Below, piece by piece: positions 128-63,488 of a stretch of DNA of 63,488 bases. Each line of letters opens with the position of its first letter. Within the stretch, counting starts at the first letter, position 1. The position numbers and the translations under genes were made by a program. The stretch comes from a virus: positions 1 to 63,488 of the IMG/VR virus record IMGVR_UViG_3300032144_000008. One strand, 5' to 3'. Below the pieces are notes generated by a model, which was not told where the DNA came from, made no database searches, and saw nothing but the letters and a program-made list of their open reading frames with translations.

Positions 128-984
128 TTTACGTCAGCGACAGTTCCGACCCAATTGACCCTGACAACGCAACCACCTACGACGCCTCTGGAGTAGGAGA
201 GGTCCGGCTGCCGGACGATTTTGCCTTTGGGGGTGGAACGTTGTGGTACCTTGCCAAGAACACCACCGAAACAACCGTCAACTTTTATCTGCGTCGCATT
301 CTTTGCAACAAGGATTCCAATGGGGTGTATCCGGGGGATCTGCCAGACTTCTTCAAGAAATTGAACAATGGCAGCTTTGGTTATGAGATTCGCAGCTACA
401 ACTTCCCCAGCAGCACCTATTTGTCCACTTATCTAGAGTGTGGCAAGTTGGAAATTCCGCATTCCGGATACTGTGTCTTTGAGGTGGTGGTTTCACGGTT
501 GCCGGTATTGGGTGATAACGATCTGTGGGAGATTCCTTCCACGGGTGAAGCTGCCCTGGACGTCAAGCTCGGGGTCATGTTGGGCGCAACTTTTGATGTT
601 GCTGGGACGTTTGAGGAGTTTCAAACGGTGACAATTTTGGCAGACGAGCCAAGTGTGACGACGACGGTGTTTTGGCCGGTGATTGGCGGGACTCCGTTGG
701 CCTACCAATCAACCAGCGCGGTGGACGTCATGGCCTTTGTGAATTTCATGCCGTTGGTCAATAGCCATTTCTTCCCAGATTACGACTATTCTTCCGGAAG
801 TTTGGCCAATGTGTCGGTACACGGACAATGGTCAGGGGAACGACAAACTCCTTCGACCGCTAGGCTCAAGACCGGATTCGCCCTCAACGGAAGGCCATCA
901 GACCCAAACATTTCAGACTGGGTGGTGCTACCAGTCAGTGCTGAGCTTTACAACGACACCGAGGCAACTCTGGGAATTTTATGA
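1..984 (+). CDS. C-terminal part (327 codons) of the origin-spanning tail tip/baseplate protein; continuation of 61838..63488
   Basis: The frame is open from base 1 (acc ttt cac gtc atg...) and in phase with the frame open at the window end. The track lists only the internal ATG at 13. Stop at 982-984 overlaps the next start (ATGA). Confidence 0.8.
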   Translation, partial: TFHVMSQVAVTAEPGGVTGYTSASIPADYEQFILRASDAAMTIYVSDSSDPIDPDNATTYDASGVGEVRLPDDFAFGGGTLWYLAKNTTETTVNFYLRRILCNKDSNGVYPGDLPDFFKKLNNGSFGYEIRSYNFPSSTYLSTYLECGKLEIPHSGYCVFEVVVSRLPVLGDNDLWEIPSTGEAALDVKLGVMLGATFDVAGTFEEFQTVTILADEPSVTTTVFWPVIGGTPLAYQSTSAVDVMAFVNFMPLVNSHFFPDYDYSSGSLANVSVHGQWSGERQTPSTARLKTGFALNGRPSDPNISDWVVLPVSAELYNDTEATLGIL

Positions 985-11036: not shown

Positions 11037-11774
11037 ATGATCAAATACATTCTCATTCTTTGCGCACTGGCCAGCGGGGTATTTGGCGCTGTTACCATTG
11101 GCGGCAAGGCGTCGTTGAATGGCAAGGCGTCGTTGGCGACGGAGGCGTCAGGTGGCGGTGGGGGTTTCTCGGACGACTTCAACCGCGCGGATGGCGATTC
11201 GCTCGGCGGCAACTGGACGGAGATTGGTGACGTGGATATTGCGAGCAACGCGGCCAATTCCCCACAGACCTTTGACAATAACCTTCGCGGCGCGGCCTAT
11301 ACCGCCACGTCCTGCGGTTCGGTGAATCAATACGTCAAGGTGACACTGACCAGTAATAACTCAGGCGGCAACGTCGCGCCGGGTGTGTTGTTGCGCTATA
11401 CGGACGCCTCGTCACCGTGCTACAATGTTCGGTTCGCGATTGCTTCCGATATTGCCCGTTGGAATCGGCTGGCCACACCGACGCCAACCGGGACCGATGC
11501 AGCGGTTGACAACGATCAATTGACAGTCGCTCCCGGCGATGTCGTTGGAATCACCATCGGCGGCACTGGGGCCTCGACCGTGGTTCGCATCTGGGTCAAC
11601 CCGACTGGTCTCCCAAGCGCGGTGGATAATTGGGACGGCGACACGACGCCCAGTCTTTCGTTGACTGTGGACCCCGGCACTCCGGTTGACACGGGAAACT
11701 ATGTAGGCATTTGCGGGCTTGGTTCCTTGGGCGTGCTGGAATGGGATGATTTTTACGGGGGAGGTTTGCCGTGA
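11037..11774 (+). CDS. signal-peptide protein with LamG/ConA-like jelly-roll motif
   Basis: ATG lies 3 nt after the upstream stop. N-terminus MIKYILILCALASGVFG-AV. Motif FSDDFNRADGDSLGGNWTEIG is typical of LamG-like lectin folds. Confidence 0.65.
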   Translation: MIKYILILCALASGVFGAVTIGGKASLNGKASLATEASGGGGGFSDDFNRADGDSLGGNWTEIGDVDIASNAANSPQTFDNNLRGAAYTATSCGSVNQYVKVTLTSNNSGGNVAPGVLLRYTDASSPCYNVRFAIASDIARWNRLATPTPTGTDAAVDNDQLTVAPGDVVGITIGGTGASTVVRIWVNPTGLPSAVDNWDGDTTPSLSLTVDPGTPVDTGNYVGICGLGSLGVLEWDDFYGGGLP

Positions 11775-13546
11775 GACGCCTGCTCCTGCTCCTGCTCTTA
11801 ATCGTGCTCCACTCGCGGGCCGCCACCATCAACGCGGATAGCGCGTCGCACACCGACGTAACTGCTGCCATCGCCGCAGCCAGCGATGGCGATACCGTTG
11901 TCATTCCCTCTGGCACGGCGCTTTATACTTCCGCGCTCACCTTGACCAAAGCCATCACCCTGCAAGGCGCTGGAATTGGTCAGACGATCATTCAGGACGG
12001 CCTTAGCTCATACGGCGCGTATTTGTTGAACGTCACGCTGGTTGAGGATTTGACGACGCGCATCACCGGCATTGAGTTTGAGGATGGCGCAGGCAGTTAC
12101 GGAGCGGGCCAGGCGAATCGCATTCGCATTTCAGGCACTTCGATTGATGATCGGCGCATCAGGATAGACAACTGCAAATTCGATTCACTGTGCGGACCGG
12201 TCTTCGTGTTCTACACCTGCCTTGGCGTCGTTGACGACAATATCATTCTCGGAAAATCTTCCGGCATTCCCGCGTTTCTTGGACACGTCATCAATTCGAG
12301 TTGGGGGCGCACGGTGGACACTTCCGCTTGGGGCGATGGCGCGTTTACCAATGCGAACGAATTTGGCAGCGAGCGATTCCTGTTTTTTGAGGACAACAAA
12401 ATAACGAATCTCTACGCGGCGTCGGCGTTGACCATGCTGGACGGTCATTCCGGTTCGCGCTACGTCGTACGATCAAATGTTATCCATAAAGGGAGCTTTG
12501 AAATTCACGGGCCAGAAGCGGCGCGCACGCGGGGCGGGCGGGCCTTTGAGGTTTATCGCAACGTCTTGACGAGCGACGGCTCGCGGTCTTCACCGCTTTA
12601 CATGCGCGGCGGCGTCGGCGTCGTTTGGAGCAACGCGATTGACGGCTGGACAACCAGCGCGGTGTTTTCACTTTTGGACAATCGCACCCGCGATAACATT
12701 TTCGCCCCGTTCAACGGCGCGGACGGTCGCAATGGTTGGGACAAGAATAACGTCGGCACTCCGTTTGACACCGGCACCGCGACGAGCGCTGGCACGCTCA
12801 CTGTAACAGCGAGCGCGGAGTCTTGGACGCCCGATGCGTGGATTGGCTACACCGTGCGCCGCACTTCTGGAAAAGCTGTCGCGAGCCTCACACGCAGCGG
12901 TAGCACATGCACTGTCACCAGCACGGGCCACGGATTCAGCACAGGCAACAAGGTTTCCATCTGGGGATCGGATCAATACCCGTTCAACGGCACCAAGAAC
13001 ATCACCGTGACGGGCAGCGACACCTTCACTTTCACCAGCGATTTTCTCCCGGCGGAAACGACGGCGACAGGAACGATCAAATGCGCGCTCGGTCACAACT
13101 TCGCTTTGATTCTGGACAACACCGGCACGCAGTTGACCTTCGCCGACGCGGTGAGTGGCACGGATTACCGATTGATTTTTGCGGCGGCTGACACCTTTGA
13201 AATCAACAAGGTTGACCAGAGCATGGATCAAATCGGCGTCATCGGCGGAACGAGCCTCGACGGCGTGAACGTGCCAACGGCGGTCTGGAGCAACACACAA
13301 ACCGTCTCACCGTGGTATGAGTGGAACAACTACCGGGAAGCCGGCGCGGACGTGGATTTTTCCACCGGCTTTTCCGGCGGTGTGTATCCGACCATCGTCA
13401 GCGGCACTCATTTTCACAACGACACCCCCGCGCCGGGCTACACGCCCTACACCTACCCGCACCCATTGCGCGGGGAAGGCGAAGCGCCAGCCACCTACAA
13501 CCTGAGCGTTGGCACGCTGAATGTGAATAATTTGATTGAACGCTAG
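11771..13546 (+). CDS. signal-peptide right-handed beta-helix protein, putative polysaccharide depolymerase/tailspike-like
   Basis: GTG start in a GTGA overlap. N-terminus MRRLLLLLLLIVLHSRA-AT, followed by INADSASHTDVTAAIAAASDGDTVVIPSGTALYT..ITLQGAG, a pectin-lyase-fold entry motif. Confidence 0.7.
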   Translation: MRRLLLLLLLIVLHSRAATINADSASHTDVTAAIAAASDGDTVVIPSGTALYTSALTLTKAITLQGAGIGQTIIQDGLSSYGAYLLNVTLVEDLTTRITGIEFEDGAGSYGAGQANRIRISGTSIDDRRIRIDNCKFDSLCGPVFVFYTCLGVVDDNIILGKSSGIPAFLGHVINSSWGRTVDTSAWGDGAFTNANEFGSERFLFFEDNKITNLYAASALTMLDGHSGSRYVVRSNVIHKGSFEIHGPEAARTRGGRAFEVYRNVLTSDGSRSSPLYMRGGVGVVWSNAIDGWTTSAVFSLLDNRTRDNIFAPFNGADGRNGWDKNNVGTPFDTGTATSAGTLTVTASAESWTPDAWIGYTVRRTSGKAVASLTRSGSTCTVTSTGHGFSTGNKVSIWGSDQYPFNGTKNITVTGSDTFTFTSDFLPAETTATGTIKCALGHNFALILDNTGTQLTFADAVSGTDYRLIFAAADTFEINKVDQSMDQIGVIGGTSLDGVNVPTAVWSNTQTVSPWYEWNNYREAGADVDFSTGFSGGVYPTIVSGTHFHNDTPAPGYTPYTYPHPLRGEGEAPATYNLSVGTLNVNNLIER

Positions 13547-39422: not shown

Positions 39423-39991
39423 ACTCAGCAATGCTCGCGGCAGACCTTGTCAAGCGGATCCCAGACCTCGCCCAAGACAACGTCGAGAACCGTTTCAACG
39501 TAGTGCTCAATTTGATTGAGGCAGAGCGAAAGCGTCAACCCGTCACGCCGCGCCAAGTCCTGACGACCGACCAGTTGTTTGAATTGCGTTGTTTGAAGGA
39601 TTGGCTGATTCGACAACGCAACCAAGAACACGACGGCGCTTTGGCCCGGATCACCCAGCGCCGACATCAGCGCATCCGGCGTCAACAACCCACAACCACG
39701 AAAGGCAAAACGAGTAATCGAAAATCTAAACGGTCGGCAGGCAGAAAAGCCAAGCCGGATTCGCTGCATGGAGTGTTAGCCAGCACGTCGTATCATCTGC
39801 TGGCTAAATACGGCAACCACAAGCGTCCCGTCGGAACATTCGAGGCCGGACGGCGCACGCCGGCAGAAGTTGCGCGGTGGATCGAGCGCGAACTAAAGCA
39901 CGGCCCGACTCAAATCGTGGTGACGCGAGTGCTGGCTAACGCCGCACTAAGCCAAGCGGCGACAACCCAAAAGGACACCAATGCCAAGTGA
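39419..39991 (+). CDS. hypothetical basic protein
   Basis: ATGA overlap. Internal ATG of track ORF 39209. Confidence 0.5.
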   Translation: MNSAMLAADLVKRIPDLAQDNVENRFNVVLNLIEAERKRQPVTPRQVLTTDQLFELRCLKDWLIRQRNQEHDGALARITQRRHQRIRRQQPTTTKGKTSNRKSKRSAGRKAKPDSLHGVLASTSYHLLAKYGNHKRPVGTFEAGRRTPAEVARWIERELKHGPTQIVVTRVLANAALSQAATTQKDTNAK

Positions 39992-40337
39992 CTCTCAACC
40001 GCCAAGCGATCCCGCTTTGGCTTCAGTAAGTGGTTCTCCTGCGCCGATTGCGAAAGGCATGGGACAAAGTGACCGCTGCCGATTCTGCGGCGAGTTCTAC
40101 GAGAAAGCAAAACCGTGGATATGCCCAGGTTGCTGGGAAACGGTAAAAGCTGTGATCGCGGAATACCCCGATGAACTCCTGAAGCCTGCGCTGGAGAACG
40201 ACCAAGCTCACCCCACTGCCGCTGGCGGGACGGGTGGAGCGCAGAGCGGGGCGCTCCCGCAGTCGCTTGCAGCCGGTGGTTTGGCGTCCGGGCGGCGCAC
40301 TACGGGTTCGGCATCTCGGTCGAAAAACTCAAAATGA
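39981..40337 (+). CDS. hypothetical CxxC..CxxC protein
   Basis: Contains CRFCGEFYEKAKPWICPGC. Confidence 0.5.
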   Translation: MPSDSQPPSDPALASVSGSPAPIAKGMGQSDRCRFCGEFYEKAKPWICPGCWETVKAVIAEYPDELLKPALENDQAHPTAAGGTGGAQSGALPQSLAAGGLASGRRTTGSASRSKNSK

Positions 40338-40588
40338 AAATCAAAGAAATCACATTCGAGATGGGCAACGACTTCGCAGCCGTGATGGAGTGCGAACACT
40401 GCCACTCCACGCAAAAGCTGTCCTCTGGATACCATGACAACTTCTATCACACGCGAGTCATCCCGGCGATGACCTGCAAAACATGCGGCAAAACCCGCGA
40501 CGGCATCGTGCCGGAAACCGCGAATAACACGGCACGCTCACTGTGGCCGAACGACCAAGCTATGCTGCGGCATGGCGACCCAAAATGA
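40334..40588 (+). CDS. zinc-ribbon-like small protein
   Basis: Contains CEHC ... CKTC. ATGA overlap. Confidence 0.5.
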   Translation: MKIKEITFEMGNDFAAVMECEHCHSTQKLSSGYHDNFYHTRVIPAMTCKTCGKTRDGIVPETANNTARSLWPNDQAMLRHGDPK

Positions 40589-40992: not shown

Positions 40993-41128
40993 TGACATTC
41001 GCCAGCAGCAACGGGTGGAAACCCACGCCCGAGACGTGGTGGAACGCCTGTTGGTGAAAAGCCAACCTGCATCCTTAACACGAATTACCTTTCCTTCCCC
41101 ATCAAAAAGAGCGAAAAACAAACCGTGA
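40952..41128 (+). CDS. possible 58-aa ORF bridging to terS (absent from the ORF track)
   Basis: Translation MPRAHDNLIGMLANDIRQQQRVETHARDVVERLLVKSQPASLTRITFPSPSKRAKNKP. Its stop overlaps the terS GTG (GTGA). It overlaps the upstream gene by 41 nt, so it is uncertain. Confidence 0.25.
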   Translation: MPRAHDNLIGMLANDIRQQQRVETHARDVVERLLVKSQPASLTRITFPSPSKRAKNKP

Positions 41129-41625
41129 GTCTGGCCACCACCAACGGGCACCCCAAGCGCAAAGTCCGCAAAAGCCGAGCCGGCAACAAAAGCAAACTGA
41201 CTGCGGCCTTCATTGGCAGCGTTCAGAAATTGGCTGCCCAAGGACTCAACCAACGTCAAATTGCCACCATCCTCAACGTAGGTGTTTCCACCATAAGCAT
41301 TTGGAAATCCAAGAAGGGCGGCCTAGAGGCAAAATTTCAAAACGCTTTACAAAAGGGTGAGGCGGAAGGCATTCGCAGAAGGCTGGCTCGCATTGAGAAG
41401 GCAGGCATCAAAGGCAGCTGGCAAGCGGACGCCTGGCTGTTGGAACGGCGCAACCCAGACCAATTCGGGCGCAACGATCGGATGCGGGTGAGCGATGTGG
41501 ATGGCAACCCAATTGCTGGCACCACGGTAATTGCTCCCACCGTGGTATTCATCCAGCCCAAGAAGGATGAGTTGAGCGAGCCAATTGAAGTGGGGCAGAT
41601 TGAGAATGGGCACCCGTCGTCATGA
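41125..41625 (+). CDS. terS: terminase small subunit (HTH-containing)
   Basis: GLNQRQIATILNVGVSTISIWK is an HTH. Lies directly upstream of terL and is coupled to it. Confidence 0.6.
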   Translation: MSLATTNGHPKRKVRKSRAGNKSKLTAAFIGSVQKLAAQGLNQRQIATILNVGVSTISIWKSKKGGLEAKFQNALQKGEAEGIRRRLARIEKAGIKGSWQADAWLLERRNPDQFGRNDRMRVSDVDGNPIAGTTVIAPTVVFIQPKKDELSEPIEVGQIENGHPSS

Positions 41626-43079
41626 ACGAGCAGGTCAAATTCACTCCCCAGCCCAAGCAGGCGTTGTTTCTTCAGAGCAATGCTGACATCACCATATTTG
41701 GAGGCGCAGCGGGTGGGGGCAAGACCTGGGGTTTGTTGTATGAGCCGTTGTACCACATCAAGAATGAGAACTTTGGCGGGGTGATCTTTCGGCGCACCTA
41801 TCCCCAGATCACGGTGGAAGGCGGGTTGTGGGACGAGAGCGACCGGCTGTATCCGTTTACGGGCGCTACCTCCACCAAGGGCTCATTACGTTGGGCGTTC
41901 CCCAGTGGCGCAACGATGGTGTTTCGCAGCATGGAGAATGAGGATGACTGTCGCAACTTTGACGGCTCGCAAATTCCTTACATCGGCTTTGATCAGTTGG
42001 AGAGCTTCACGCCCAAGCAGTTTTGGTACATGCTCAGCCGCAACCGTTCTACCTGTGGCATTCGGCCGTACATTCGGGCCAGTTGCAATCCGCAACCGGG
42101 CTGGCTGGCGGATTTGATTCAGTGGTGGTGGGATCCGGAAACGGGCTATGCCATTCCGGAACGCAGCGGGGTGGTGCGCTGGTTTGTGAGAATTGGGGAT
42201 GGCATCCGTTGGTATGCCACCCGTCAGGAGGCAGCCAAGAAACACCCGTCCGTGCCGGCCAAGAGCTTCACCTTTATCTTCAGCAAGCTGGAGGACAACC
42301 AGGTGTTGATGAAGGCAGACCCGGGCTACCTGGCCAACCTGATGGCGTTGCCGTTGGTGGACCGCGAACGGCTGCTGGGTGGCAACTGGAAGATTTCCGT
42401 GGCGGGCAACATCTTTAAACGGGAATGGTGGAAGTTTGTGGACGCGCCACCAGCGGGAATCTACAACTGGTGTCGTTATTGGGACCTGGCCGCCACTGTG
42501 CCGACCGATGGCAAAGAGCCAGACTGGACCGCAGGTGCCAAGCTGGGCGAATTGAACGGGGACATTTACATTGCGGACGTGGTGCACTTCCAAGGCTCAT
42601 CGCTGACCAACGAACGCACCATCAAGGCCACTGCCGAGTTGGACGGGCCAGCCGTGGCGGTGCGCATGGAGCAGGAAGGCGGGGCGAGCGGCAAGAGCCT
42701 GAGTGGAGACGAGGGCCATTACGCTCGTAACATCCTTGTCGGTTACGACTTCTCAGGTGTGCCCAGCAGCAAGAAGAAATTGTTGCGCTGGGCACCATTG
42801 AGCGCAGCGGCGGAAAAGGGCAGGGTGTTCTTGGTCAAAGGTCGTTGGAATCAGGACTTCGTGGATGAGTTGGAAGGCTGCAAGGGAGACGACGAGAAGA
42901 ACGACCAGGCCGACGCTGCTAGCGGGGCACTGGAGGCGTTACGTGTGCCGACCGGAGCTTGGGACGCCCATGCGATTCAAGTCGCCTCCACGGGCTACCA
43001 GCGACCAATGGGCGTGCCGGGCAGCCTTGACCCAACAACGTATGACCCGATGGCGGAAACGGTGGACGCAACGGAGTGA
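41622..43079 (+). CDS. terL: terminase large subunit
   Basis: Walker A FGGAAGGGKTW. 485 aa, with a C-terminal nuclease-like acidic region. ATGA overlap with terS. Confidence 0.9.
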   Translation: MNEQVKFTPQPKQALFLQSNADITIFGGAAGGGKTWGLLYEPLYHIKNENFGGVIFRRTYPQITVEGGLWDESDRLYPFTGATSTKGSLRWAFPSGATMVFRSMENEDDCRNFDGSQIPYIGFDQLESFTPKQFWYMLSRNRSTCGIRPYIRASCNPQPGWLADLIQWWWDPETGYAIPERSGVVRWFVRIGDGIRWYATRQEAAKKHPSVPAKSFTFIFSKLEDNQVLMKADPGYLANLMALPLVDRERLLGGNWKISVAGNIFKREWWKFVDAPPAGIYNWCRYWDLAATVPTDGKEPDWTAGAKLGELNGDIYIADVVHFQGSSLTNERTIKATAELDGPAVAVRMEQEGGASGKSLSGDEGHYARNILVGYDFSGVPSSKKKLLRWAPLSAAAEKGRVFLVKGRWNQDFVDELEGCKGDDEKNDQADAASGALEALRVPTGAWDAHAIQVASTGYQRPMGVPGSLDPTTYDPMAETVDATE

Positions 43080-43082
43080 ATT

Positions 43083-43346
43083 ATGATCAAGCCGCTTGAA
43101 AAGCATTCGGTAGGCCCAAAGCCCCGATCCGTGGTGGAAAACGCTGCAGTGGCCACGCTCGGCACGGCAAACGGTGCTCCTGAGCCCATTCAACCGTGCT
43201 GTTCCTGCCGTTGGGCGGTGCAAACCAAGGAATTGTTACGTTGCCATCTGAATCCACCCCAGGTGCGCATGCCCTACGACAACATGGCGGCCTGGCCGGT
43301 GGTGCCCAGCCGAGGTGGCGGTTGTTCATCGCACGCCACATCATGA
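43083..43346 (+). CDS. small Cys-rich protein (87 aa), first gene of the accessory cassette
   Basis: Contains PCCSCRW..RCH...GGGC. No recognised family. Confidence 0.45.
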   Translation: MIKPLEKHSVGPKPRSVVENAAVATLGTANGAPEPIQPCCSCRWAVQTKELLRCHLNPPQVRMPYDNMAAWPVVPSRGGGCSSHATS

Positions 43347-44023
43347 AGACCGCCGTTTTCCATCTCGTCCGCGAGCCGGGGGAGTCTGAGGATTTCCTGG
43401 CAAGTTATTTTGAGCACTTGAGCGGGGCGGACCACGAACTGTTTCCCGTGCTCAAGGGCGGGGCGTCCGCACCCGTGCCGGGTTTCCGCCAGTTTCGCGT
43501 GAATGATTTTGGACGGTCGTTGCACGCCTTTGGCAAGGCGTTGCGGCGGGTGGACCTGGAGGGGTTTGACACTGTTTGTTTTCTCAATTCCTTTTCGCGC
43601 ATCGCTTGTGATGGCTGGCTGGACCGATTGGTGAGCACAGCACGACGGCCGGAAGTTGGCATGGCGGGTTGCACGGCCAGTTTGGAAAGCTTTCTGGGCA
43701 ACAAGCCCGCGCTGTGGCGGTCGCTGTTGTTTCCGCCCTGGCCAAATCCACATCTGCGCACGAACGCGATCTGTCTGCGCATGGAGGTGGCACGAAAGTA
43801 TTGGCCTCGGTTCGCCTTCAACAAGCCGCTGGAACATGTCTCTGAATCTGGCTGGTGGGGTTTGACAAATCGTCTGCGGGTGGCAGGGCTTGATTGTGTG
43901 GTGGTCAACGCTACCAGCGAGCACACTCTCAGTGCGGATCGGCAAAGCTTTGAGTCGCCATGCTTTCGTGAAGGCTGGCCCACGATGGTTACGGACAATC
44001 GCCGAAAGGGAACATGCGAATGA
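43343..44023 (+). CDS. hypothetical protein, weakly glycosyltransferase (GT-A)-like
   Basis: ATGA overlap. FDTVCFLNSFSRIACDGWLDRLV resembles the GT2 pattern ..flnnD....gWl..l, but no DxD motif was seen. Confidence 0.55.
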   Translation: MKTAVFHLVREPGESEDFLASYFEHLSGADHELFPVLKGGASAPVPGFRQFRVNDFGRSLHAFGKALRRVDLEGFDTVCFLNSFSRIACDGWLDRLVSTARRPEVGMAGCTASLESFLGNKPALWRSLLFPPWPNPHLRTNAICLRMEVARKYWPRFAFNKPLEHVSESGWWGLTNRLRVAGLDCVVVNATSEHTLSADRQSFESPCFREGWPTMVTDNRRKGTCE

Positions 44024-44196
44024 CGCACGATCAGTCTCCGTTTGTTGCCGATGACCTGAAATGGCGTTGGTGGCATTGGCCGGTGGCAGCCCTGGTGTTC
44101 ATTCCGGTGGCGGTTGGGATTGTCTTCTTCATTGCGCTGGTCCTGGTATCAGGCATTAACGATTGGTGGCAAGACCGACGGAAAGACAAGTTGTGA
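44020..44196 (+). CDS. single-TM membrane protein
   Basis: ATGA overlap (alternative ATG at 44014). Contains WPVAALVFIPVAVGIVFFIALVLVSGI. Confidence 0.5.
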   Translation: MTHDQSPFVADDLKWRWWHWPVAALVFIPVAVGIVFFIALVLVSGINDWWQDRRKDKL

Positions 44197-44699
44197 GCTC
44201 ACGAATGAGTTTCTGTTTGGCGGTGGCGCTGATCGTTGCTGCGTTGGTCTGGTTGTTTGCCGAAGCGTTGCACCCCGATCATGTTGTGTTCTCCAATGAC
44301 GGTCCGTTGGGGGCATTGCAATCACAGCAGTCTCAAACCTTTGGCCCAATTTGGGCAGACCTGAATTGGTTGGGGCGCTCTGAGCCAGCTTGGTCGGCTT
44401 CCGGTATCACTGGAGGTTTCCGAGCGTTGATGCTTTGCCGCAACCTAGCAATAGGCACGGTTCTGCTTTGTATGATTGGCTGGCCGTTAGCTTATTGGTG
44501 GACTGGGCGTGGCGTCTTGAAGGGGATTGAGATTGGACTGCTGGCTTGTTGGTGTCAGCTGATTGGCTTCGGCTTGGTCTTGGCCTTGTTGCACTTCCTG
44601 ACCGGCAACCCGGAATATCTCGGCGCGTCCTTCGGCTTGTTGAGCTTTGCATTCATGGTAGGTTTTGGCTTTCTGCCGCCTGCTCCGGATCCTCACTAA
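44193..44699 (+). CDS. four-TM integral membrane protein
   Basis: GTG start in a GTGA overlap (alternative ATG at 44205). Four hydrophobic segments. Confidence 0.55.
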   Translation: MSSRMSFCLAVALIVAALVWLFAEALHPDHVVFSNDGPLGALQSQQSQTFGPIWADLNWLGRSEPAWSASGITGGFRALMLCRNLAIGTVLLCMIGWPLAYWWTGRGVLKGIEIGLLACWCQLIGFGLVLALLHFLTGNPEYLGASFGLLSFAFMVGFGFLPPAPDPH

Positions 44700-44701
44700 T
44701 T

Positions 44702-45724
44702 ATGAAACCACCTATCTCCCTCGTTTTGGCTACGGCTGAGAATTGTCAACTCGGCTGCTCTGGTTGTCCGACCGGTCGTGTCAAAATATGGAATACAAAC
44801 GAAAAGCCCGGCGTGGGCGTCATGTCCCTGGTCATGGCCGACCGCATCATCACCAAGGCCAAGGCCGAGGCGCATGTCTTGAGCGTTTGCACCTATTACT
44901 TCAATGAGGTGCTGATCTATCCGCACATCGTGGAGCTGGTGAAGCTGATCCAGTCCCACGGGTTTTATCAATTCCTCTCGACGAACTTGAACACGTTCAA
45001 GCATGTGCCGGAATTGATGGCCCTTGAACCCACGAACATCATCGTGAGTTTGTCCGGCTGGTCCAATGAGACCTATCAGCGGTACCACGCCGGCGGCGAT
45101 GTGGAGGTGGTGAAGGCGAATATGGTCAAGCTGGCGGCGTTGCGCAAGCCCGGCACGTTCCTGCGGATGAGTTGGCATGACTTTCATTACAACCGCCACG
45201 AACAGGCGCAGGCCAAAGCTTTCGCGGATGAACACGGCTATTGTTTCACGCCCTACGGTGTGGGCGTGTTGCCGTTGGAACGCACGCTGGCACGCTGGCA
45301 GGACGGGCAGCTTGATCCGGCGGAGAAGGACATTCTCGTGCCGTTGCAGGAAGCGAAGAAACTGAGCTGGCCACGAAGGCATTGGAACTGCCAGATGCAG
45401 CAGCAGACCATGACGGTGGACGCGGCGGGCAATGTTTACAACTGCTCGGATCGCTACAACAGCACCAATCTGCGCGGGAGTTTCTTTGAGCGTTCGGTGA
45501 CGGACATCCTCAAGGCGCGCAAGACGGATTTCGATTGCGTTTCCTGCAAGGCGGTGGGTGGGCACATCTACGGCGCGCAGGAATACACCGTGCCGCTGAC
45601 GAGTGTGCGGCGCTGGTTGGACATCCCCTTTCGCGGCCTGAAGCTCCAGGGCCTTTTCCAACGCCTCGATTTCGACGAATGGCGCAATCAGGTTGAGAGC
45701 CATTACGACCGGCCGCAAAAATGA
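44702..45724 (+). CDS. radical SAM enzyme with a SPASM/twitch-like C-terminal Cys cluster
   Basis: CQLGCSGC (CxxxCxxC) at codons 15-22 (nt 44744-44767). C-terminal pattern NCQ...GNVYNCS....CVSC. Confidence 0.8.
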   Translation: MKPPISLVLATAENCQLGCSGCPTGRVKIWNTNEKPGVGVMSLVMADRIITKAKAEAHVLSVCTYYFNEVLIYPHIVELVKLIQSHGFYQFLSTNLNTFKHVPELMALEPTNIIVSLSGWSNETYQRYHAGGDVEVVKANMVKLAALRKPGTFLRMSWHDFHYNRHEQAQAKAFADEHGYCFTPYGVGVLPLERTLARWQDGQLDPAEKDILVPLQEAKKLSWPRRHWNCQMQQQTMTVDAAGNVYNCSDRYNSTNLRGSFFERSVTDILKARKTDFDCVSCKAVGGHIYGAQEYTVPLTSVRRWLDIPFRGLKLQGLFQRLDFDEWRNQVESHYDRPQK

Positions 45725-45939
45725 GAAGCCGCACTCCTCCCCTCACCGAGCCTAATGGATGGGAAAAGTCCACCACCGACATTCGGGTCATTTGCACCCC
45801 CACCGAGAAGCTGTTGTGGAAGGCGGTGTTTGGAGTGGGTAACGTGGCGGAAGTCAGCCGAAGGTTGTTGAATGAAGAAGCGCACAAACAAGCCAACATT
45901 CCTTGCGGACGAAAACACCACCCAAAGGGGAAGTGTTAG
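45721..45939 (+). CDS. ribbon-helix-helix-like small protein
   Basis: ATGA overlap. IRVICTPTEKLLWKAVFGVGNVAEVSRRLLNEEA resembles the CopG/Arc strand-helix-helix pattern. Confidence 0.5.
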   Translation: MRSRTPPLTEPNGWEKSTTDIRVICTPTEKLLWKAVFGVGNVAEVSRRLLNEEAHKQANIPCGRKHHPKGKC

Positions 45940-46129
45940 GCTCACCAACTTGCACCCCAGCGGCATGTTGGCCGAGGACGTCAAGTGTCTGGCCAAAGCC
46001 AAACAACGAGCTGAAGAAGTCACCACCGAGGCCATTCAACGATATGAGAAGTGTCACCCGTTGATCAACAAGCCGTTGAAAGATGACTTTGCGAAATGTG
46101 GGGATGGGAGTTTAGTTCAATCAAGTTGA
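45872..46129 (+). CDS. possible small protein, start uncertain (45872 or 45965)
   Basis: Overlaps the previous ORF by 68 nt if started at 45872. Its stop overlaps a TTG at 46126 that is in frame with the portal gene. Confidence 0.3.
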   Translation: MKKRTNKPTFLADENTTQRGSVRLTNLHPSGMLAEDVKCLAKAKQRAEEVTTEAIQRYEKCHPLINKPLKDDFAKCGDGSLVQSS

Positions 46130-48159
46130 GCAACTTGGTTGTCTCCAAATTCGTCCACGAAGCCCGTGCCAAAGCTGCACCGGGCACTTTCCTTTCCCAG
46201 CTGCCAGTGCAGGCGCGTGCGCCTCGCTTGCCGGCTCTCAATGATGTTTCGCTAACGAATATCCTTCCTCCTTTCGGAACCAATCCGCCTCAAGGCCCAA
46301 TTGCCAACAGCGACTTGGACTTGAATGACCGTTACATCCGCAGCGATCCGCGTGAGCTTTGGTATCTCAGCCTGCCCAACAAGCTAACGCCTCAGCAGTG
46401 CCTTCAAATTCTTCGCAGTGCCCTTGGTGGTGACATTTGGCAACAGTGGCAGCTTTGCGCCATCATGCTGGACAGCTGGCCGACGTTCCGAATGGCCAGC
46501 CATCAATTGATGGAGGCAGCGGCTTATGCGCGTTACGCAGTCCACCCCTGTGCCGAGGAAGGCAAGAAACCGACGCCACAAGCGATTGAGCGTGCGGACC
46601 TGGTCAGCCGAGCGATTCGCTCCATGCATCCGGATCCGTTCAATGACGAAAAGGGATTCAGCGGAATGTGCTATGCACTGTGCGACGCGATGCTCAATGG
46701 CGTGTCCACTGTGGAGTTGATTTGGGACTTTCGCACGTCAAGTGATCACGGACGGGAGCGTATGCCCGTTTCCTCAGCCTGGGTTCATCCCCGTCACGTT
46801 TCCTTCACCAACGAAGGCCAGATTGCCGTCTTCAGCGAGAATTACAACCGGCTGACCTATGCGGGTGCTCCGCAATCCACCAAGCCTTCGCCGGACAAAT
46901 TTCTTTGTGCCCAGTTCATGAGCAAGGCCGGGTCTTGCCTTGGTGCCGGGTTCATGCGACCGCTGGTCTGGTATTGGGCCGCCCGCCAGTTCAATCTGGA
47001 ATGGATGCTCAACACCGCCAAGCAATACGGCTCTCCGTTCATCGACATCACCTACAAGCCAGGCAGCGTGAGCACTGGGCCAGGTGGTGAGTTGGAGAAG
47101 CTGAATGAGTTGCTCAAGACGGCCGGAAGCCAACGCAGATTGATTCATCCCGAGGGGACGCTGGCCAACATTCATCCGCCTACCAGTTTGGGCAAGGAGA
47201 ACCCACAACGTGTCCTTGAGGAAAAAGCCGACGAAGCCTGCCTGTTCCTGCTCCTTGGCCAAAAGGGAACCACGACGCCGACGCAAGGGGCGCTCGGTTC
47301 GCAAGACACTCACGAAACGGTCAAGGACGAACGCATTGCCGGTGTCGCCAATTGGTTGGCGCGCAATCCCCTTCGCCAATTTGCCCGTGCTGTCCTGAGG
47401 GTCAACTACGGCAACGACGACGAGTGTCCGAACATTGAGCCCGACTTCACCAAGCCGCTTAAGCCTGAACAAGTGGGCCAAATGATGAGTGCGGTCAGCG
47501 GGTCACGCGTGCCTGTTCGGGCGGACGAGTTCTACAAGAAAGTTGGTTTCACCCAGCCGGAAGCCGGGGAAGTGGTCTTGGCTGGCGGCATCATCGGAGT
47601 TCAAAGCGAGCCGATGACGGACGACGAACGGTTTGATCAACAGCTTGGCCAACAGGTCAAGACGGCGGAAGTGCAAATGGAGTTGGGGGCGGAAATGGAA
47701 CAAGGCCAGTCCGCACAGGCGTCTGAATGGGCAAGGGACAATTTTGTTCGCGCAACAGGAACAAGTGAAGGGGCAGAGAAAGGTTGGACACATCGGGTGC
47801 ACGTTAGAATGACCGACAGGCACGCGGTTGGCTCTAATAGCCGTTCTTATCCCAATCAGGAGATTCGCAAGATCCGGTTGACGGCCACCAGCGACGAAGA
47901 GGCAGAAACCAAGGCTCACAATTTCTACAAGAAGCGACAGTACAAGAATCTGCACACCGTTCACATTGAGAAGAATCCCGGCGTGCAAGCTCGCGGCACC
48001 AAACTACGCGACGTTCTTCACGCCGCTTCCTCCGACGAGCTAGACGCCTTAGAAGCCAAGCTGACCGCTGCTGAGTCAGCGCCCCACAAGAATGGAGAGG
48101 TGGAAGATTTGACCGAAACGATCGTGGGACTGGCCCACCAGAAAAGGTTTGAGCCATGA
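46096..48159 (+). CDS. portal protein (Mu gp29/DUF935-like) with a C-terminal extension
   Basis: LQILRSALGGDIWQQWQLCAIMLDSWPTFRMASHQLMEAAAYARYAV resembles the DUF935 N-terminal block. Large size, and lies upstream of the protease and capsid genes. TTG at 46126 is an alternative start. Confidence 0.75.
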   Translation: MWGWEFSSIKLSNLVVSKFVHEARAKAAPGTFLSQLPVQARAPRLPALNDVSLTNILPPFGTNPPQGPIANSDLDLNDRYIRSDPRELWYLSLPNKLTPQQCLQILRSALGGDIWQQWQLCAIMLDSWPTFRMASHQLMEAAAYARYAVHPCAEEGKKPTPQAIERADLVSRAIRSMHPDPFNDEKGFSGMCYALCDAMLNGVSTVELIWDFRTSSDHGRERMPVSSAWVHPRHVSFTNEGQIAVFSENYNRLTYAGAPQSTKPSPDKFLCAQFMSKAGSCLGAGFMRPLVWYWAARQFNLEWMLNTAKQYGSPFIDITYKPGSVSTGPGGELEKLNELLKTAGSQRRLIHPEGTLANIHPPTSLGKENPQRVLEEKADEACLFLLLGQKGTTTPTQGALGSQDTHETVKDERIAGVANWLARNPLRQFARAVLRVNYGNDDECPNIEPDFTKPLKPEQVGQMMSAVSGSRVPVRADEFYKKVGFTQPEAGEVVLAGGIIGVQSEPMTDDERFDQQLGQQVKTAEVQMELGAEMEQGQSAQASEWARDNFVRATGTSEGAEKGWTHRVHVRMTDRHAVGSNSRSYPNQEIRKIRLTATSDEEAETKAHNFYKKRQYKNLHTVHIEKNPGVQARGTKLRDVLHAASSDELDALEAKLTAAESAPHKNGEVEDLTETIVGLAHQKRFEP

Positions 48160-53745: not shown

Positions 53746-54966
53746 GTGGCTGCTTTTGCTCTCATTGCTGCTGGTGTCGCTCCTGCTCGGGCTGTGGCTC
53801 GGGACGCGGGAGCAACCTTGACAGCCATCCGTGCCGAGCGTTTGGCGCGACGGATTGAGAGCGTGCTGGCCAAAGACTCTGGCCGCACCGCCAAGGCAAT
53901 CGTTCACGACGAAGCCGGTAACGTGCTGGTGATTCGGGATGCGACTTACGGAACGTGGGATTTGCCGGGTGGTCACCTGCACGAAGGCGAAAGTCTCAAC
54001 CAAGGCTTGCACCGGGAAGTGAAAGAGGAAACTGGCCTTGAGATCAGCGGCGAGAGTTGGAATCGCAACGTCAACCAAGGCCGAACGGAGGTGTTCGACA
54101 CCCAGGTTTTCGGGGTCAAACCGCGAGTCACCCTTTCCGACGAACACACCGCTTTCAAGTGGGTTGAACCGGCGGAAGCCGAAAAACTGGCTGCTTTCTG
54201 GTTTCAGGACACCTCCGGGAACGTCCCCGGCTCGTCCAGGGCGAGCTTTTATCCCGAAACCGGGCCAACGGGCGTCCCCGGCCATCAAAACGCTCTAGAG
54301 GCCAAGCAGCGCGTCCGGGCAGAAGCTGAAAAACAGGTTGGCCGAGCCGTTCACCGGGTGGTGACCCTGGCCGAAGCCGAAGTTTTGGCCGGCAAACCTG
54401 CCGACGACTTCTGGGCTTATGCGGCCGCAACGTTCTTTGGCGCTATCATGGCGGCTTACGGCGAGTCGGCCAAAGCCCTGGCGGTGATTGAACGGGGAGC
54501 AGACCACGGCGACGTGGCCACCGAAGCTGAGGAGCGAGCGCACGCTGAACAACGAGCCGGTTTGCTCAAGGACTTTCCCAAGCGGATTCGGGAACGGCTA
54601 GAGCTAGAGGTCAAGCGCGGTCAAGAGCTTTGGGAGACGGAAGCCGAATTGAATCGTCGGGTCACCTTGGAAGGTGAACGTCTCCTTGAGACCGAAGGCC
54701 GAGTGGTGGCGGAAACCGAAGCGCAAGCCATTGCTGGCTCGGCTACGTTGCGGGCCTTGAAACGAGCCGGGTTTGAAACCTGTTTCTGGGTCACGGTAGG
54801 CGACGAGCGGGTGCGTGATAGTCACACCCACAACGAATCAGTTGGCGCAGTCAAGCTGGGTGACAAGTTTCCGAATGGTTGTCGGTTTCCGGGGGATCCT
54901 CTGGCACCGCTTGCGGAAACAATAAATTGTAGGTGCTGGTTGACCGGCGCAAACCGAAAGCAATGA
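53746..54966 (+). CDS. Nudix hydrolase domain fused to a MuF/SPP1-gp7-like head morphogenesis domain
   Basis: Nudix box GGHLHEGESLNQGLHREVKEETGL (nt 53968-54039). C-terminal VGDERVRDSHTHNE....FPGDPLAPLAETINCRCW matches the MuF motif (..D.r.c..C....PP.H.nCRC). Confidence 0.8.
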   Translation: MAAFALIAAGVAPARAVARDAGATLTAIRAERLARRIESVLAKDSGRTAKAIVHDEAGNVLVIRDATYGTWDLPGGHLHEGESLNQGLHREVKEETGLEISGESWNRNVNQGRTEVFDTQVFGVKPRVTLSDEHTAFKWVEPAEAEKLAAFWFQDTSGNVPGSSRASFYPETGPTGVPGHQNALEAKQRVRAEAEKQVGRAVHRVVTLAEAEVLAGKPADDFWAYAAATFFGAIMAAYGESAKALAVIERGADHGDVATEAEERAHAEQRAGLLKDFPKRIRERLELEVKRGQELWETEAELNRRVTLEGERLLETEGRVVAETEAQAIAGSATLRALKRAGFETCFWVTVGDERVRDSHTHNESVGAVKLGDKFPNGCRFPGDPLAPLAETINCRCWLTGANRKQ

Positions 54967-61841: not shown

Positions 61842-63488
61842 GTGTTACCCGTAACATTGCCATTACCCAAGCGGATATGGACGCATTGGCTACGCTGGCC
61901 AATGGAGTTGGAGCTCCCATGCCAACCAACTTCCGGTTCAACAATTTTGACGACGCGGTGTTGCCGCCAACCGAAGTGGTGGGAACGATCAATTATGGAT
62001 CCGGAAGCTATGTCGCCAGTGGCACCGCGATCGTGTGTCACGTTTACAGCTACAAGGACGTTGCCGGGGTCAATCATTATTCTAAGCTGTATGCCATTGG
62101 GAGCGTTACGCCTAATGATTCCTTGGACGCCTTCGAGATTGAATGGGACTGGACACCTCCAGCAGACGCGGTGGACGGCTACATTTACATCCTCTTTGCC
62201 ACAGGCTCAGGTTCTGTTGGAGATTGGGCAGATGTCACCTCTTTGCCTTTCACAGACGACAACAACGGACTCACGATTCCTGTGATTGGCACGTTGGCCA
62301 CCTGGAATCCGATTGAGGGTTGGGCCACTCGATTCAGCTATCTTGAGGAAGCCAGCGGCGCTCGTCAACCGGGCCAGTGGCTTCGGGAATTGGATCGGAT
62401 TCGCCAGAACATGGTTAATCTTTACGCCGAGGACGCCACCTGGCTGGTGTCTGGTCCGTGGTGCGTTTCGGTTGGCCCGAGACTGCGTTATGGAAGTGAT
62501 GCCACCGTTTACGGAAGCGTAGAGTTTTGGTATGCGGCAGACGACCTTGCCGGAGACGTGGACTTTTTGACGGTGGCGGAAATTGGCCACGCTGACAAGC
62601 CGTATGTCTTCACCACCGTGGGGCAACCGGCAGACGAGTTCCATTCTGCGTTAAGTCCCAATTGTCCGGCTGCTGGCAATTGGACCGGTAGGATCATTTG
62701 GACAACTGCCAATGCAGTTTCAGGCGGGGTAACGCATGCTTTAACGGCAGTTTCTGGAGCCACCATTAGCCTGGAAACGTGGACGGTAATTGACAACGCC
62801 ATCATTTTGGATTTTGTCTTGGCGCTGTCCTCCGGAGCCAGTCAGGTTGACATTGACATTGATTTGAATGACGGCACCAACAGCTTTGAAGACCTGAGTG
62901 CAGCAAGCGGTCGCCAGACCGGAGAAATGGTTTCGGAAATAATCTTTGACACCGAGACCATCACTCCTTCTAGTGTTGATGTAATCCATCCCAGCAGCCT
63001 TGGCAAGAAGGCGGCTCCAACCGCTATTGATTCAGCTTTTGGGCCGGTGGTGTTTGTGGGGGTGAATTACTATCCAAGCTTCCATGTGGATGGGGATGTG
63101 GACGGAGTGTGGGTGGCGATGACCCGGTTTGCTTATGGTATTCACACTTATTTGGAATCAGACCTGCCAAATTATTATCTGGACAGCTTTGGTTCTGGGC
63201 CAAGAAGCGAAGCCAGTACAGATCCGGCGGCAGCAGCGGTGACACCTGCGGTGGCGGCTCGTTCCTCGTTGTGGCCGGTGTTTCGTGATACAGACTTTGG
63301 CACCTGGAAACGGATGTCACCTTCGGTCGCTGTTACAGAAGTGCCATATTATCCACAGGACACCTTTCACGTCATGAGCCAGGTTGCCGTGACGGCTGAA
63401 CCGGGTGGAGTTACCGGCTACACTAGCGCATCAATACCCGCAGACTACGAACAGTTCATCCTCCGCGCCTCGGACGCTGCCATGACGA
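61838..63488 (+). CDS. N-terminal part of the origin-spanning tail tip/baseplate protein (835 aa in total; continues at 1..984)
   Basis: Hand translation from ATG 61838 (MSVTRNIAITQADMDALATLANGVGAPMPTNFRF...) found no stop codon up to base 63488. In phase with 13..984. Absent from the ORF track because no stop is reached inside the window. Confidence 0.8.
   Translation, partial: MSVTRNIAITQADMDALATLANGVGAPMPTNFRFNNFDDAVLPPTEVVGTINYGSGSYVASGTAIVCHVYSYKDVAGVNHYSKLYAIGSVTPNDSLDAFEIEWDWTPPADAVDGYIYILFATGSGSVGDWADVTSLPFTDDNNGLTIPVIGTLATWNPIEGWATRFSYLEEASGARQPGQWLRELDRIRQNMVNLYAEDATWLVSGPWCVSVGPRLRYGSDATVYGSVEFWYAADDLAGDVDFLTVAEIGHADKPYVFTTVGQPADEFHSALSPNCPAAGNWTGRIIWTTANAVSGGVTHALTAVSGATISLETWTVIDNAIILDFVLALSSGASQVDIDIDLNDGTNSFEDLSAASGRQTGEMVSEIIFDTETITPSSVDVIHPSSLGKKAAPTAIDSAFGPVVFVGVNYYPSFHVDGDVDGVWVAMTRFAYGIHTYLESDLPNYYLDSFGSGPRSEASTDPAAAAVTPAVAARSSLWPVFRDTDFGTWKRMSPSVAVTEVPYYPQDTFHVMSQVAVTAEPGGVTGYTSASIPADYEQFILRASDAAMT
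63362..63488. repeat. second copy of the 127-bp terminal repeat
   Basis: Identical to 1-127. Confidence 0.95.

Follow-up and report, generated by a model that had tools for sequence, protein, structure and literature searches.

A radical SAM gene cassette between the terminase and portal genes of a phage, and its possible role in tailoring surface glycans

What are seven closely packed reading frames doing between the gene for the large terminase subunit (TerL) and the portal gene of a phage? The question is raised by IMG/VR virus record IMGVR_UViG_3300032144_000008, a stretch of 63,488 nucleotides that is referred to here as the window, in which a cassette encoding a radical S-adenosylmethionine (rSAM) enzyme fills the gap. 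We give about an even chance to the reading that this is an accessory, moron-like module that modifies, at the membrane, a sugar borne by a nucleotide or polyprenyl carrier, and in so doing changes the surface glycan of the infected cell. Its functional core is proposed to consist of g2, g3, g4 and the rSAM gene (numbered as in the list below), with g1, g6 and g7 as lineage-specific passengers. We also propose that the cassette was captured by the phage lineage from a cell-envelope glycosylation locus of bacteria of the Verrucomicrobiota or Planctomycetota-Verrucomicrobiota-Chlamydiota (PVC) type. An earlier note on this DNA had preferred maturation of a ribosomally synthesised and post-translationally modified peptide (RiPP), and had listed an envelope- or glycan-modifying module only as an alternative; the neighbourhood evidence supports the latter, though not as a gtr operon by membership.

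All seven open reading frames (ORFs) that had been described between the two genes exist on the + strand, and together (43083-46129) they occupy a TerL-portal gap of 3,016 bases. The cassette and its boundaries are as follows, with lengths in amino acids (aa) and overlaps in nucleotides (nt):

41622-43079, + strand: TerL, the upstream boundary (Pfam Terminase_6N, E 1.6e-18, and Terminase_6C; phrog_979, E 2e-137)
43083-43346, + strand: g1, 87 aa, Cys-rich (C-x2-C ... C-H ... C-x2-H), lineage-specific and outside the conserved module (ORF list)
43343-44023, + strand: g2, 226 aa, glycosyltransferase-like protein with a predicted glycosyltransferase-A (GT-A) fold and without DxD (AlphaFold2, AF2, and Foldseek)
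44014-44196, + strand: g3, 60 aa, single-pass membrane protein with a transmembrane (TM) segment at residues 27-45 (hydropathy scan)
44205-44699, + strand: g4, 164 aa, four-TM protein, the ORF opening at 44163 (hydropathy scan; family hidden Markov model, HMM)
44702-45724, + strand: rSAM enzyme, 340 aa (Pfam Radical_SAM above cut-off)
45721-45939, + strand: g6, 72 aa, no assigned function (ORF list)
45872-46129, + strand: g7, 85 aa, overlapping g6 by 68 nt and the portal ORF by 34 nt, with an alternative internal ATG at 45965 (ORF list)
46096-48159, + strand: portal protein, the downstream boundary (Pfam Portal_Mu, E 7e-41; phrog_113)

Neighbouring genes of the cassette abut or share 4-10 nt, an arrangement compatible with translational coupling. 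No promoter- or terminator-like site within the cassette exceeds shuffle expectation, so that it is probably carried on a late transcript. In Rhizobium phage RHph_TM3_3_3, the closest cultured relative by TerL (49% identity), the portal gene begins 9 nt after TerL, in agreement with the earlier statement that the two genes are normally adjacent; relative to that arrangement the cassette is therefore an insertion. The AT skew is negative solely over the cassette (-0.09 and -0.23 across 43000-45000), being mostly positive in the rest of the genome with ordinary GC content, a dip that may reflect T-rich codons of membrane proteins or a foreign origin.

The radical SAM enzyme and its partners

As anatomy, the earlier description of an rSAM protein with a SPASM- or twitch-like C-terminal Cys cluster is accurate. 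The match to Pfam Radical_SAM (PF04055) reaches 34.5 bits against a cut-off of 29.5, whereas SPASM itself falls below threshold in both Pfam (PF13186, 18.1 bits versus 21.5) and TIGR04085 (16.6 versus 27). At least 90% of the 17 homologues keep the cluster-binding motif CxxxCxxC (C15-x3-C19-x2-C22), as do at least 90% of 111-150 members of the wider clade. Toward the C-terminus, C230, C248, C279 and C282 are invariant across the 17 homologues, and no other C-terminal Cys is conserved. A twitch domain is defined by C-x9-15-G-x4-C plus further Cys and a single auxiliary cluster, and a SPASM domain by 7-8 Cys and two auxiliary [4Fe-4S] clusters; judged as a sequence pattern, C230-x12-G243-x4-C248 ... 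C279-x2-C282 fits the twitch type of truncated SPASM, and the four Cys would be enough ligands for one auxiliary cluster. With the cluster motif as early as residue 15, the N-terminus is too short to hold a peptide-recognition domain, and none of the RiPP recognition element (RRE) or PqqD-like kind is present on the protein; Pfam and NCBIfam also return no PqqD or RRE match among its cassette neighbours.

The predicted structure (AF2 model, mean predicted local distance difference test, pLDDT, of 74) has as its Foldseek neighbours BlsE, ranked first, and SuiB, SkfB, DesII, anSME, MoaA and BtrN, with template-modelling scores (TM-scores) of 0.47-0.58. The model places the enzyme in the twitch/SPASM clade, without separating sugar from peptide substrates. 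In NCBIfam nothing comes near a cut-off, the best being W_rSAM_matur, TYW1 and spiro-SPASM at 25-27 bits against 250-380. Nor is there an NCBIfam match to QueE or NrdG, and in more than 20 loci the gene has membrane or glycan genes for neighbours, in agreement with the earlier remark that the protein is unlike these usual phage rSAM enzymes. A nucleotide-directed function of the QueE, NrdG or viperin-like kind was rejected for the lack of a family match together with the wrong neighbours; the genome-wide check for queC, queD, folE and nrdD covered only part of the genome. Anaerobic sulfatase maturase was likewise rejected, as that enzyme requires two auxiliary clusters.

Close relatives of the enzyme number 17 among 5.8 billion (5.8e9) proteins. 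The wider clade is larger, with 396 clusters at E<1e-30 and 3,593 at E<1e-10 in an exhaustive profile search (clusters at 50% identity), and none of the 111 top members scanned reaches the cut-off of a named NCBIfam family. Some forms in this clade reach 720-770 aa and, as in phrog_21308, carry the rSAM domain C-terminally, and a few are fused to TPR or ankyrin repeats.

To compare gene neighbourhoods, about 25 non-redundant loci encoding rSAM relatives were searched by tblastn and with HMMs built from the cassette proteins. The most constant partner of the rSAM gene is the g4 family, a g4 or YfhO-like relative adjoining it in 12 of the ~25 loci, with most of the remainder being short contigs. 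Short g4-like forms occur in the window and in seven loci (L003, L004, L005, L013, L024, L030 and L032), one of which, L004, carries a tandem partial duplication of the gene (3-137 and 184-666) upstream of the rSAM gene. In four others (L006, L010, L015 and L017) the g4 segment is the N-terminus of a protein of 788-957 aa. The hydropathy scan gives g4 four TM segments and g3 one, as the earlier note had it, and the segment common to g4 and the long proteins consists of TM1, then a loop in which FSNDGPLG and WxDLN are invariant, then three further helices; g4 matches only the N-terminal ~160 aa of the long forms. The YfhO family is made up of multi-TM proteins of about 800-900 aa with an extracytoplasmic domain at the C-terminus. 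Pfam YfhO (PF09586) scores on three of the long proteins (24.5 bits in L006, 26.0 in L010, 19.3 in L015) lie below the cut-off of 28.5 and cover the C-terminal region only. For the proteins of L010, L015 and L017 the hydropathy scan predicts 11-12 TM segments, a soluble region of ~290 aa and one more TM segment at the end, and for that of L006 it detects 6 TM segments only; none of the long proteins has an NCBIfam or PDB sequence match. A protein-database search with g4 returned only g4 itself, but as tblastn and HMM searches of the fetched loci do find clear relatives, this is taken as a word-index limit rather than absence.

Three of the loci with a long partner are independent bacterial contigs in which the rSAM/YfhO-like pair occurs with no phage genes:

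L010, a Verrucomicrobiota metagenome-assembled genome (MAG): full-length partner of 895 aa; HddA-like sugar kinase, GmhB-like phosphatase, GT9 heptosyltransferase and a B12-rSAM gene beside the pair
L015, a 96-kb contig: full-length partner of 884 aa; after the pair come a 418-aa multi-TM protein and GT4, and a CTP-transferase-like gene is close by
L017, a 107-kb contig: full-length partner of 957 aa; a PEP-CTERM protein upstream, a class I methyltransferase and GT2 downstream

LamG proteins are also found among the neighbours of these pairs, and the B12-rSAM protein of L010 has an HpnJ-like match below threshold. In bacterial contigs that are rich in glycan-assembly genes, a twitch-like rSAM gene and a YfhO-like membrane protein are genetically coupled. 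In the phage-like contig L006, a methyltransferase, g2, a small TM ORF, the rSAM gene and a full-length YfhO-like protein are found together.

In the case of g2, the suggestion of a GT-A-like protein is confirmed by structure prediction. The AF2 model (pLDDT 88, predicted TM-score 0.88) confidently predicts a GT-A fold, in the form of a single Rossmann-like α/β/α domain. There are 296 PDB structure matches at E<=1e-3, and GT-A enzymes dominate among the 50 listed, with the O-antigen fucosyltransferase WrtF at the top and the GT6 enzyme BoGT6a, LARGE1 and B3GalT5 also among them. In the viral structure library BFVD the top match is an RgpF-like rhamnan synthesis protein (TM-score 0.67). Invariant motifs of the family are LNSFS, PNPHLRTN, ESG and DN. 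The metal-binding DxD motif is not present in g2, its position, as inferred from the strand order of the model, being held by invariant L81-N82 and near-invariant S83 and S85. Donor binding by WrtF uses neither metal ions nor basic residues (PMC12595478). A sequence-level match of g2 to a glycosyltransferase family was not found, the g2 profile matched nothing meaningful among PDB sequences, and the hydropathy scan detected no TM segment in it.

A g2 homologue accompanies the rSAM gene in seven loci, all phage-like (the window, L002, L003, L005, L006, L007 and L012), and cellular relatives at ~32% identity sit among RmlC, RmlD, GT2, GT4 and methyltransferase genes. SAM-dependent methyltransferases of class I (Methyltransf_23/11) also lie next to rSAM, g2 or YfhO-like genes in L002 (8020-8775), L017 (11957-12997, - strand) and L024 (557-1543), and one of the Methyltransf_21 type in L006 (4191-5450). 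Their recurrence in phage and bacterial loci alike hints at a methylated product.

Membrane ORFs adjoin the rSAM gene in every locus. A short N-terminal motif, aromatic-His-Asn(-Pro-Lys), was found in 5 of 160 small TM ORFs in 275 kb, and all five stand next to an rSAM gene. The motif scan places these aromatic-HNPK membrane ORFs at:

L001, 11047-11181
L002, 8780-8896
L013, 1189-1443
L028, 4415-4609
L006, 6346-6564

Such ORFs may tether the rSAM enzyme or serve as its substrate. In the window the same slot beside the rSAM gene is occupied by g3, which is without the motif and shares a WRWWHW-TM-WxQD pattern with the 72-aa ORF of L006 (BLASTP E 9e-5). For g6 and g7, tblastn and HMM searches found no homologues in the related loci, and g6 has no family match that would bear out the ribbon-helix-helix (RHH)-like label it had been given. 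In L004, TerL directly follows the rSAM gene, and g6 and g7 are therefore not part of the conserved module. Matches of g6 to designed armadillo repeats in the PDB were rejected as a repeat-summing artefact with zero significant stretches. Scans of g1, g2, g3, g4, g6 and g7 against Pfam, PHROGs, NCBIfam and PADLOC gave only chance-level matches to TM segments.

The cassette is dispensable and mobile, as is evident from a natural deletion in L012 (described below) and from the differing positions of the module, which lies in the TerL-portal gap in the window, upstream of TerL in L004, and among fibre-like genes in L001, L002 and L013. It is also rare. The rSAM and g2 sequences have no tblastn match in 50,697 GenBank phage records, a scan of IMG/VR with rSAM and g2 profiles found this same phage only (a UViG of 62,368 bp), and PADLOC has no match to the cassette, so that the earlier statement that no phage system of this composition had been described still holds for the collections searched. 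The literature on rSAM enzymes with YfhO, O-antigen or Verrucomicrobia phages yielded no description of it.

A glycan-tailoring module and the rival explanations

The glycan-tailoring reading is favoured because the rSAM gene stands next to a g4/YfhO-like gene in about half of the loci, with glycan genes as neighbours in the bacterial contigs, and because the nearest structures to the predicted GT-A fold of g2 are transferases of the O-antigen or rhamnan type that do not depend on a metal or DxD, and its cellular kin belong to RmlC/RmlD/glycosyltransferase clusters. In addition, g2 keeps company with the rSAM gene in the seven phage-type loci, the sugar-tailoring twitch enzymes BlsE, DesII and BtrN are among the top structural neighbours of the rSAM model, membrane ORFs are constant companions of the gene, and the whole is a dispensable, mobile unit. 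In the phages, the set consists of the rSAM gene with a truncated YfhO-like N-terminus, a GT-A-fold protein with kin in polysaccharide clusters, and small membrane ORFs.

If this reading is correct, the cassette would be expressed late, with the packaging and head genes, and the cytoplasmic rSAM enzyme would be held at the membrane by g3 and g4. The radical step would be an oxidation, deoxygenation, epimerisation or decarboxylation, as in BtrN, DesII and BlsE, of a sugar linked to a nucleotide or polyprenyl phosphate. A sugar, possibly a 6-deoxyhexose, could then be transferred to a lipid-linked or glycan acceptor by g2, acting as an enzyme of the metal-independent type. For its part, g4 might mimic the N-terminal helices and first loop of a host YfhO-like enzyme of the glycosyltransferase-C (GT-C) type, and so couple to extracytoplasmic glycosyltransfer or interfere with it. 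The outcome would be an altered surface polysaccharide that could block superinfection or re-adsorption of progeny.

Several points weigh against such a role. Apart from the generic rSAM domain, no enzyme of the cassette meets a curated family threshold: the YfhO matches are sub-threshold and confined to the C-terminus of the long proteins, and g2 is without a glycosyltransferase family match at the sequence level. As structural neighbours of the rSAM model, the peptide-modifying enzymes SuiB, SkfB, CteB and anSME score equal to the sugar enzymes. At 164 aa, g4 is too short to be a working GT-C enzyme, and three loci with good flanks (L001, L002 and L028) have neither g4 nor a YfhO-like gene, only the small aromatic-HNPK membrane ORF. 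The bacterial rSAM/YfhO-like loci are without g2, and a common substrate for the three proteins is therefore not required. Classical seroconversion modules are carried by temperate phages, whereas this phage looks lytic. Finally, the assignment of the host rests on the title of one MAG and on PVC-like neighbour genes.

A bolder version, which we regard as unlikely but worth stating, is that the rSAM enzyme and the YfhO-like protein constitute an undescribed two-component system for tailoring glycoconjugates in Verrucomicrobiota/PVC bacteria. Phages would use a stripped form of it, comprising the rSAM enzyme, a four-helix fragment of the membrane enzyme, with its conserved first loop (FSNDGPLG...WxDLN), that serves as a decoy or adaptor to redirect or block the host enzyme, and a small membrane peptide whose conserved, cytoplasmic aromatic-His-Asn-Pro-Lys tail either docks the rSAM enzyme or is itself modified by the radical chemistry. 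If true, such a decoy or adaptor would represent a novel means by which a lytic phage remodels its host's surface.

Next in probability, and already quite improbable in our judgement, is glycosylation of the virion itself, whereby g2 attaches a sugar made or tailored by the rSAM enzyme to capsid, portal or fibre proteins, in the cytoplasm and late in infection, as in some mycobacteriophage glycosyltransferase cassettes. Glycosylation of mycobacteriophage virions is named in published papers. The placement of the cassette within a late packaging and head operon, with no detectable signals of its own, would suit this explanation, as would the position of the rSAM gene among fibre-like genes in three loci, the solubility predicted for g2, the many phage glycosyltransferases among the BFVD matches to its GT-A fold, and the methyltransferases that recur in the neighbourhoods. 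It leaves unexplained why the most consistent partner should be an integral membrane protein, kin to a type of enzyme that works on the outer face of the membrane and is not needed to glycosylate virions in the cytoplasm, and why the rSAM/YfhO-like pair should exist in bacterial loci that contain no phage genes at all.

Slightly less probable is a function outside glycans, either the modification of a membrane lipid or another small molecule, along the lines of rSAM enzymes of hopanoid and ether-lipid synthesis and with the membrane proteins as scaffold, or an unrelated role in anti-defence or host takeover. Membrane partners in all loci, a clade that is uncharacterised as a whole, a weak likeness to HpnH (NCBIfam E 0.038) and GDGT-MAS, and the HpnJ-like B12-rSAM neighbour in L010 are what speak for it. 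The similarities to HpnH, GDGT-MAS and HpnJ, however, are far under family cut-offs, and both g2 and the cellular neighbourhoods are of the glycan type. The empty PADLOC result argues against a defence-related role, and neither partners from nucleotide pathways nor a QueE or NrdG match accompany the rSAM gene.

By a small margin, the least probable of these explanations is RiPP-type maturation, in which the rSAM enzyme would form a thioether or C-C crosslink in g1, the version put forward in the earlier note, or in the small membrane ORF (g3 or its aromatic-HNPK counterparts) at its cytoplasmic N-terminal tail, a variant raised by the present analysis. For g1, the evidence turns on one locus. 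Its sole homologue occurs in L012, which carries the nearest relative of the cassette (84% identity in the TerL C-terminus); the two g1 proteins are 65-66% identical at the amino acid level and share the CxxC, CH and C-terminal Cys positions. The rate of non-synonymous substitution (dN) is 0.26 and that of synonymous substitution (dS) ~3.1, with a ratio (ω) of ~0.09, which marks g1 as a real gene under purifying selection; the ratio could be computed for g1 and the TerL C-terminus only, because saturation of dS precluded it for g2, g4 and the rSAM gene. At 1594-2263 of L012, a natural deletion has removed the N-terminal 123 residues of the rSAM protein, CxxxCxxC included, along with g3 and g4, and has left g1 and g2 intact. 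The TerL-portal interval in L012 and the window is therefore a variable, dispensable insertion site; L012 has two extra ORFs (96 and 87 aa) between TerL and g1.

The earlier note had held that its reading required the Cys-rich ORF to be conserved alongside the rSAM gene. Searches by tblastn and HMM found g1 in none of the other related rSAM loci, of which there are more than 20, including L003, where g2 directly follows TerL, and outside the window the gene is thus kept only where the presumed maturase is truncated. Moreover, g1 has no Pfam, PHROG, NCBIfam, PADLOC or PDB matches. The enzyme has no RRE or PqqD-like domain ahead of a cluster motif at residues 15-22, it has only four conserved C-terminal Cys and a SPASM score below cut-off, and the Pfam, PHROGs and NCBIfam scans of the cassette products turned up neither a peptidase nor an exporter nor an immunity gene. 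Its conserved partners are of the glycosyltransferase type. Maturation of g1 is not supported, and it fails on the very ground that the earlier note had named as refuting.

The tail variant draws on the motif-bearing small TM ORFs, 5 out of 160, that stand beside rSAM genes in divergent loci, and on the L006 ORF, in which the aromatic-HN motif occurs twice. Against it, the g3 of the window has THD in place of the motif, and the bacterial loci are without the small ORF. Both versions gain from the membership of the enzyme in the twitch/SPASM clade, from CteB and SuiB as its best PDB sequence-profile matches, from a Foldseek list that includes SuiB, SkfB, CteB, PqqE and EpeE, and from the TPR or ankyrin domains of some distant clade members, which suggest protein substrates, and the g1 version gains from the purifying selection on g1 and its retention with g2 in L012.

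Comparison with known systems

By membership, the cassette is outside the gtr, SPASM-RiPP, QueE and NrdG families, because their defining features were tested and not found. In operation it would most resemble, by analogy, a Gtr or CsbB/GtcA/YfhO system to which a sugar-tailoring radical enzyme of the BtrN/DesII/BlsE type has been joined. Extracytoplasmic glycosylation by three components is known from GtrA/GtrB/GtrC of temperate phages and CsbB/GtcA/YfhO of Firmicutes. The likeness lies in the joint presence of an enzyme with a GT-A fold, small proteins with several TM segments and a membrane protein of the YfhO-like or GT-C type; as with Gtr, the cassette is phage-borne and modification of a surface glycan is to be expected. 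In contrast to both, g2 is not a GT2 enzyme by sequence and has no TM anchor, there is no GtrA-family match, the GT-C-like component is cut to its first four helices, and the central conserved gene is an rSAM gene, which is not known from any gtr or CsbB-YfhO system. The phage also appears lytic. A gtrABC seroconversion operon consists of a GtrA-family flippase, a GT2 bactoprenol glucosyltransferase with a TM anchor (GtrB) and a serotype-specific GT-C transferase of full length. Such an operon was rejected on all three components, there being no GtrA or GT2 match in Pfam, no TM segment in g2, and four helices only in g4.

Like the cassette enzyme as predicted, BtrN, DesII and BlsE have a compact core with a C-terminal auxiliary-cluster domain and no peptide-recognition domain. 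BlsE is the top Foldseek match, DesII and BtrN are listed too, and there is a weak NCBIfam similarity to BlsE, but identities are 13-18%, TM-scores are 0.47-0.56 and no family cut-off is reached. These enzymes act in cellular antibiotic pathways with no membrane partners, unlike the phage-borne enzyme of the window. For g2, the closest comparisons are with WrtF, RgpF-like proteins and BoGT6a, its best structural matches; the N-S-F-S sequence at the usual DxD position resembles the metal-independent WrtF and BoGT6a, and the neighbours of its cellular homologues include genes for deoxythymidine diphosphate (dTDP)-6-deoxyhexoses. It has no detectable sequence similarity to these enzymes, and it lacks the C-terminal helical bundle of WrtF. 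The ranthipeptide and sactipeptide maturases SuiB, CteB and SkfB belong to the same broad clade as the rSAM enzyme, with comparable Foldseek and profile scores and small ORFs nearby. In contrast to these, the cassette enzyme has no RRE and one predicted auxiliary cluster instead of two, and its locus offers glycosyltransferase-type partners in place of a conserved precursor, protease and exporter.

Most of the phage genes known to alter the surface glycans of a host belong to gtr- or oac-type modules, found in temperate enterobacterial phages. The present cassette would differ from these in being built on an uncharacterised rSAM clade (~400 clusters at 50% identity, with no named family), in coming from an apparently lytic phage whose presumed host phylum has been little studied, and in being traceable to a conserved bacterial rSAM/YfhO-like gene pair with no function assigned to it. 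Solving its chemistry would give this clade a function and reveal the targets that are glycosylated by YfhO-like proteins of PVC bacteria, and would also test whether phages use truncated fragments of membrane enzymes as adaptors or inhibitors.

The genome around the cassette

The window begins and ends with an exact direct repeat of 127 bp (1-127 = 63362-63488), and the contig, which either was assembled as a circle or has a direct terminal repeat, is therefore a complete phage genome of ~63.4 kb. Every long ORF lies on the + strand. In a partial scan, the genome proved to encode a DNA polymerase of the family-A type, a primase-helicase and a helicase, and no integrase was seen; the phage appears lytic. 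A tRNA scan found none.

Two further genes concern attachment. The ORF at 981-9161 encodes a protein of 2,726 aa with trimeric-adhesin repeats of the YadA/Hep_Hag type at about residues 2280-2470, which is probably a giant tail fibre. A 591-aa protein (11771-13546) has a weak, N-terminal pectate-lyase-like match of 22.4 bits, below cut-off, and is a candidate polysaccharide-degrading tailspike. The candidate tailspike and the adhesin-like fibre hint that the phage recognises a surface glycan, and so lend the glycan-tailoring reading some weaker support.

Just 5' of a putative small terminase gene that contains a helix-turn-helix (41125-41625) are two small Cys-rich, zinc-ribbon-like ORFs with CxxC pairs (118 and 84 aa; 39981-40588), and small Cys-rich proteins resembling g1 are therefore common in this genome. 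Downstream of the cassette, at 53746-54966, a 406-aa protein fuses a NUDIX hydrolase to a Mu-F-like head morphogenesis domain; cargo domains on MuF proteins are of interest as effectors delivered by the virion.

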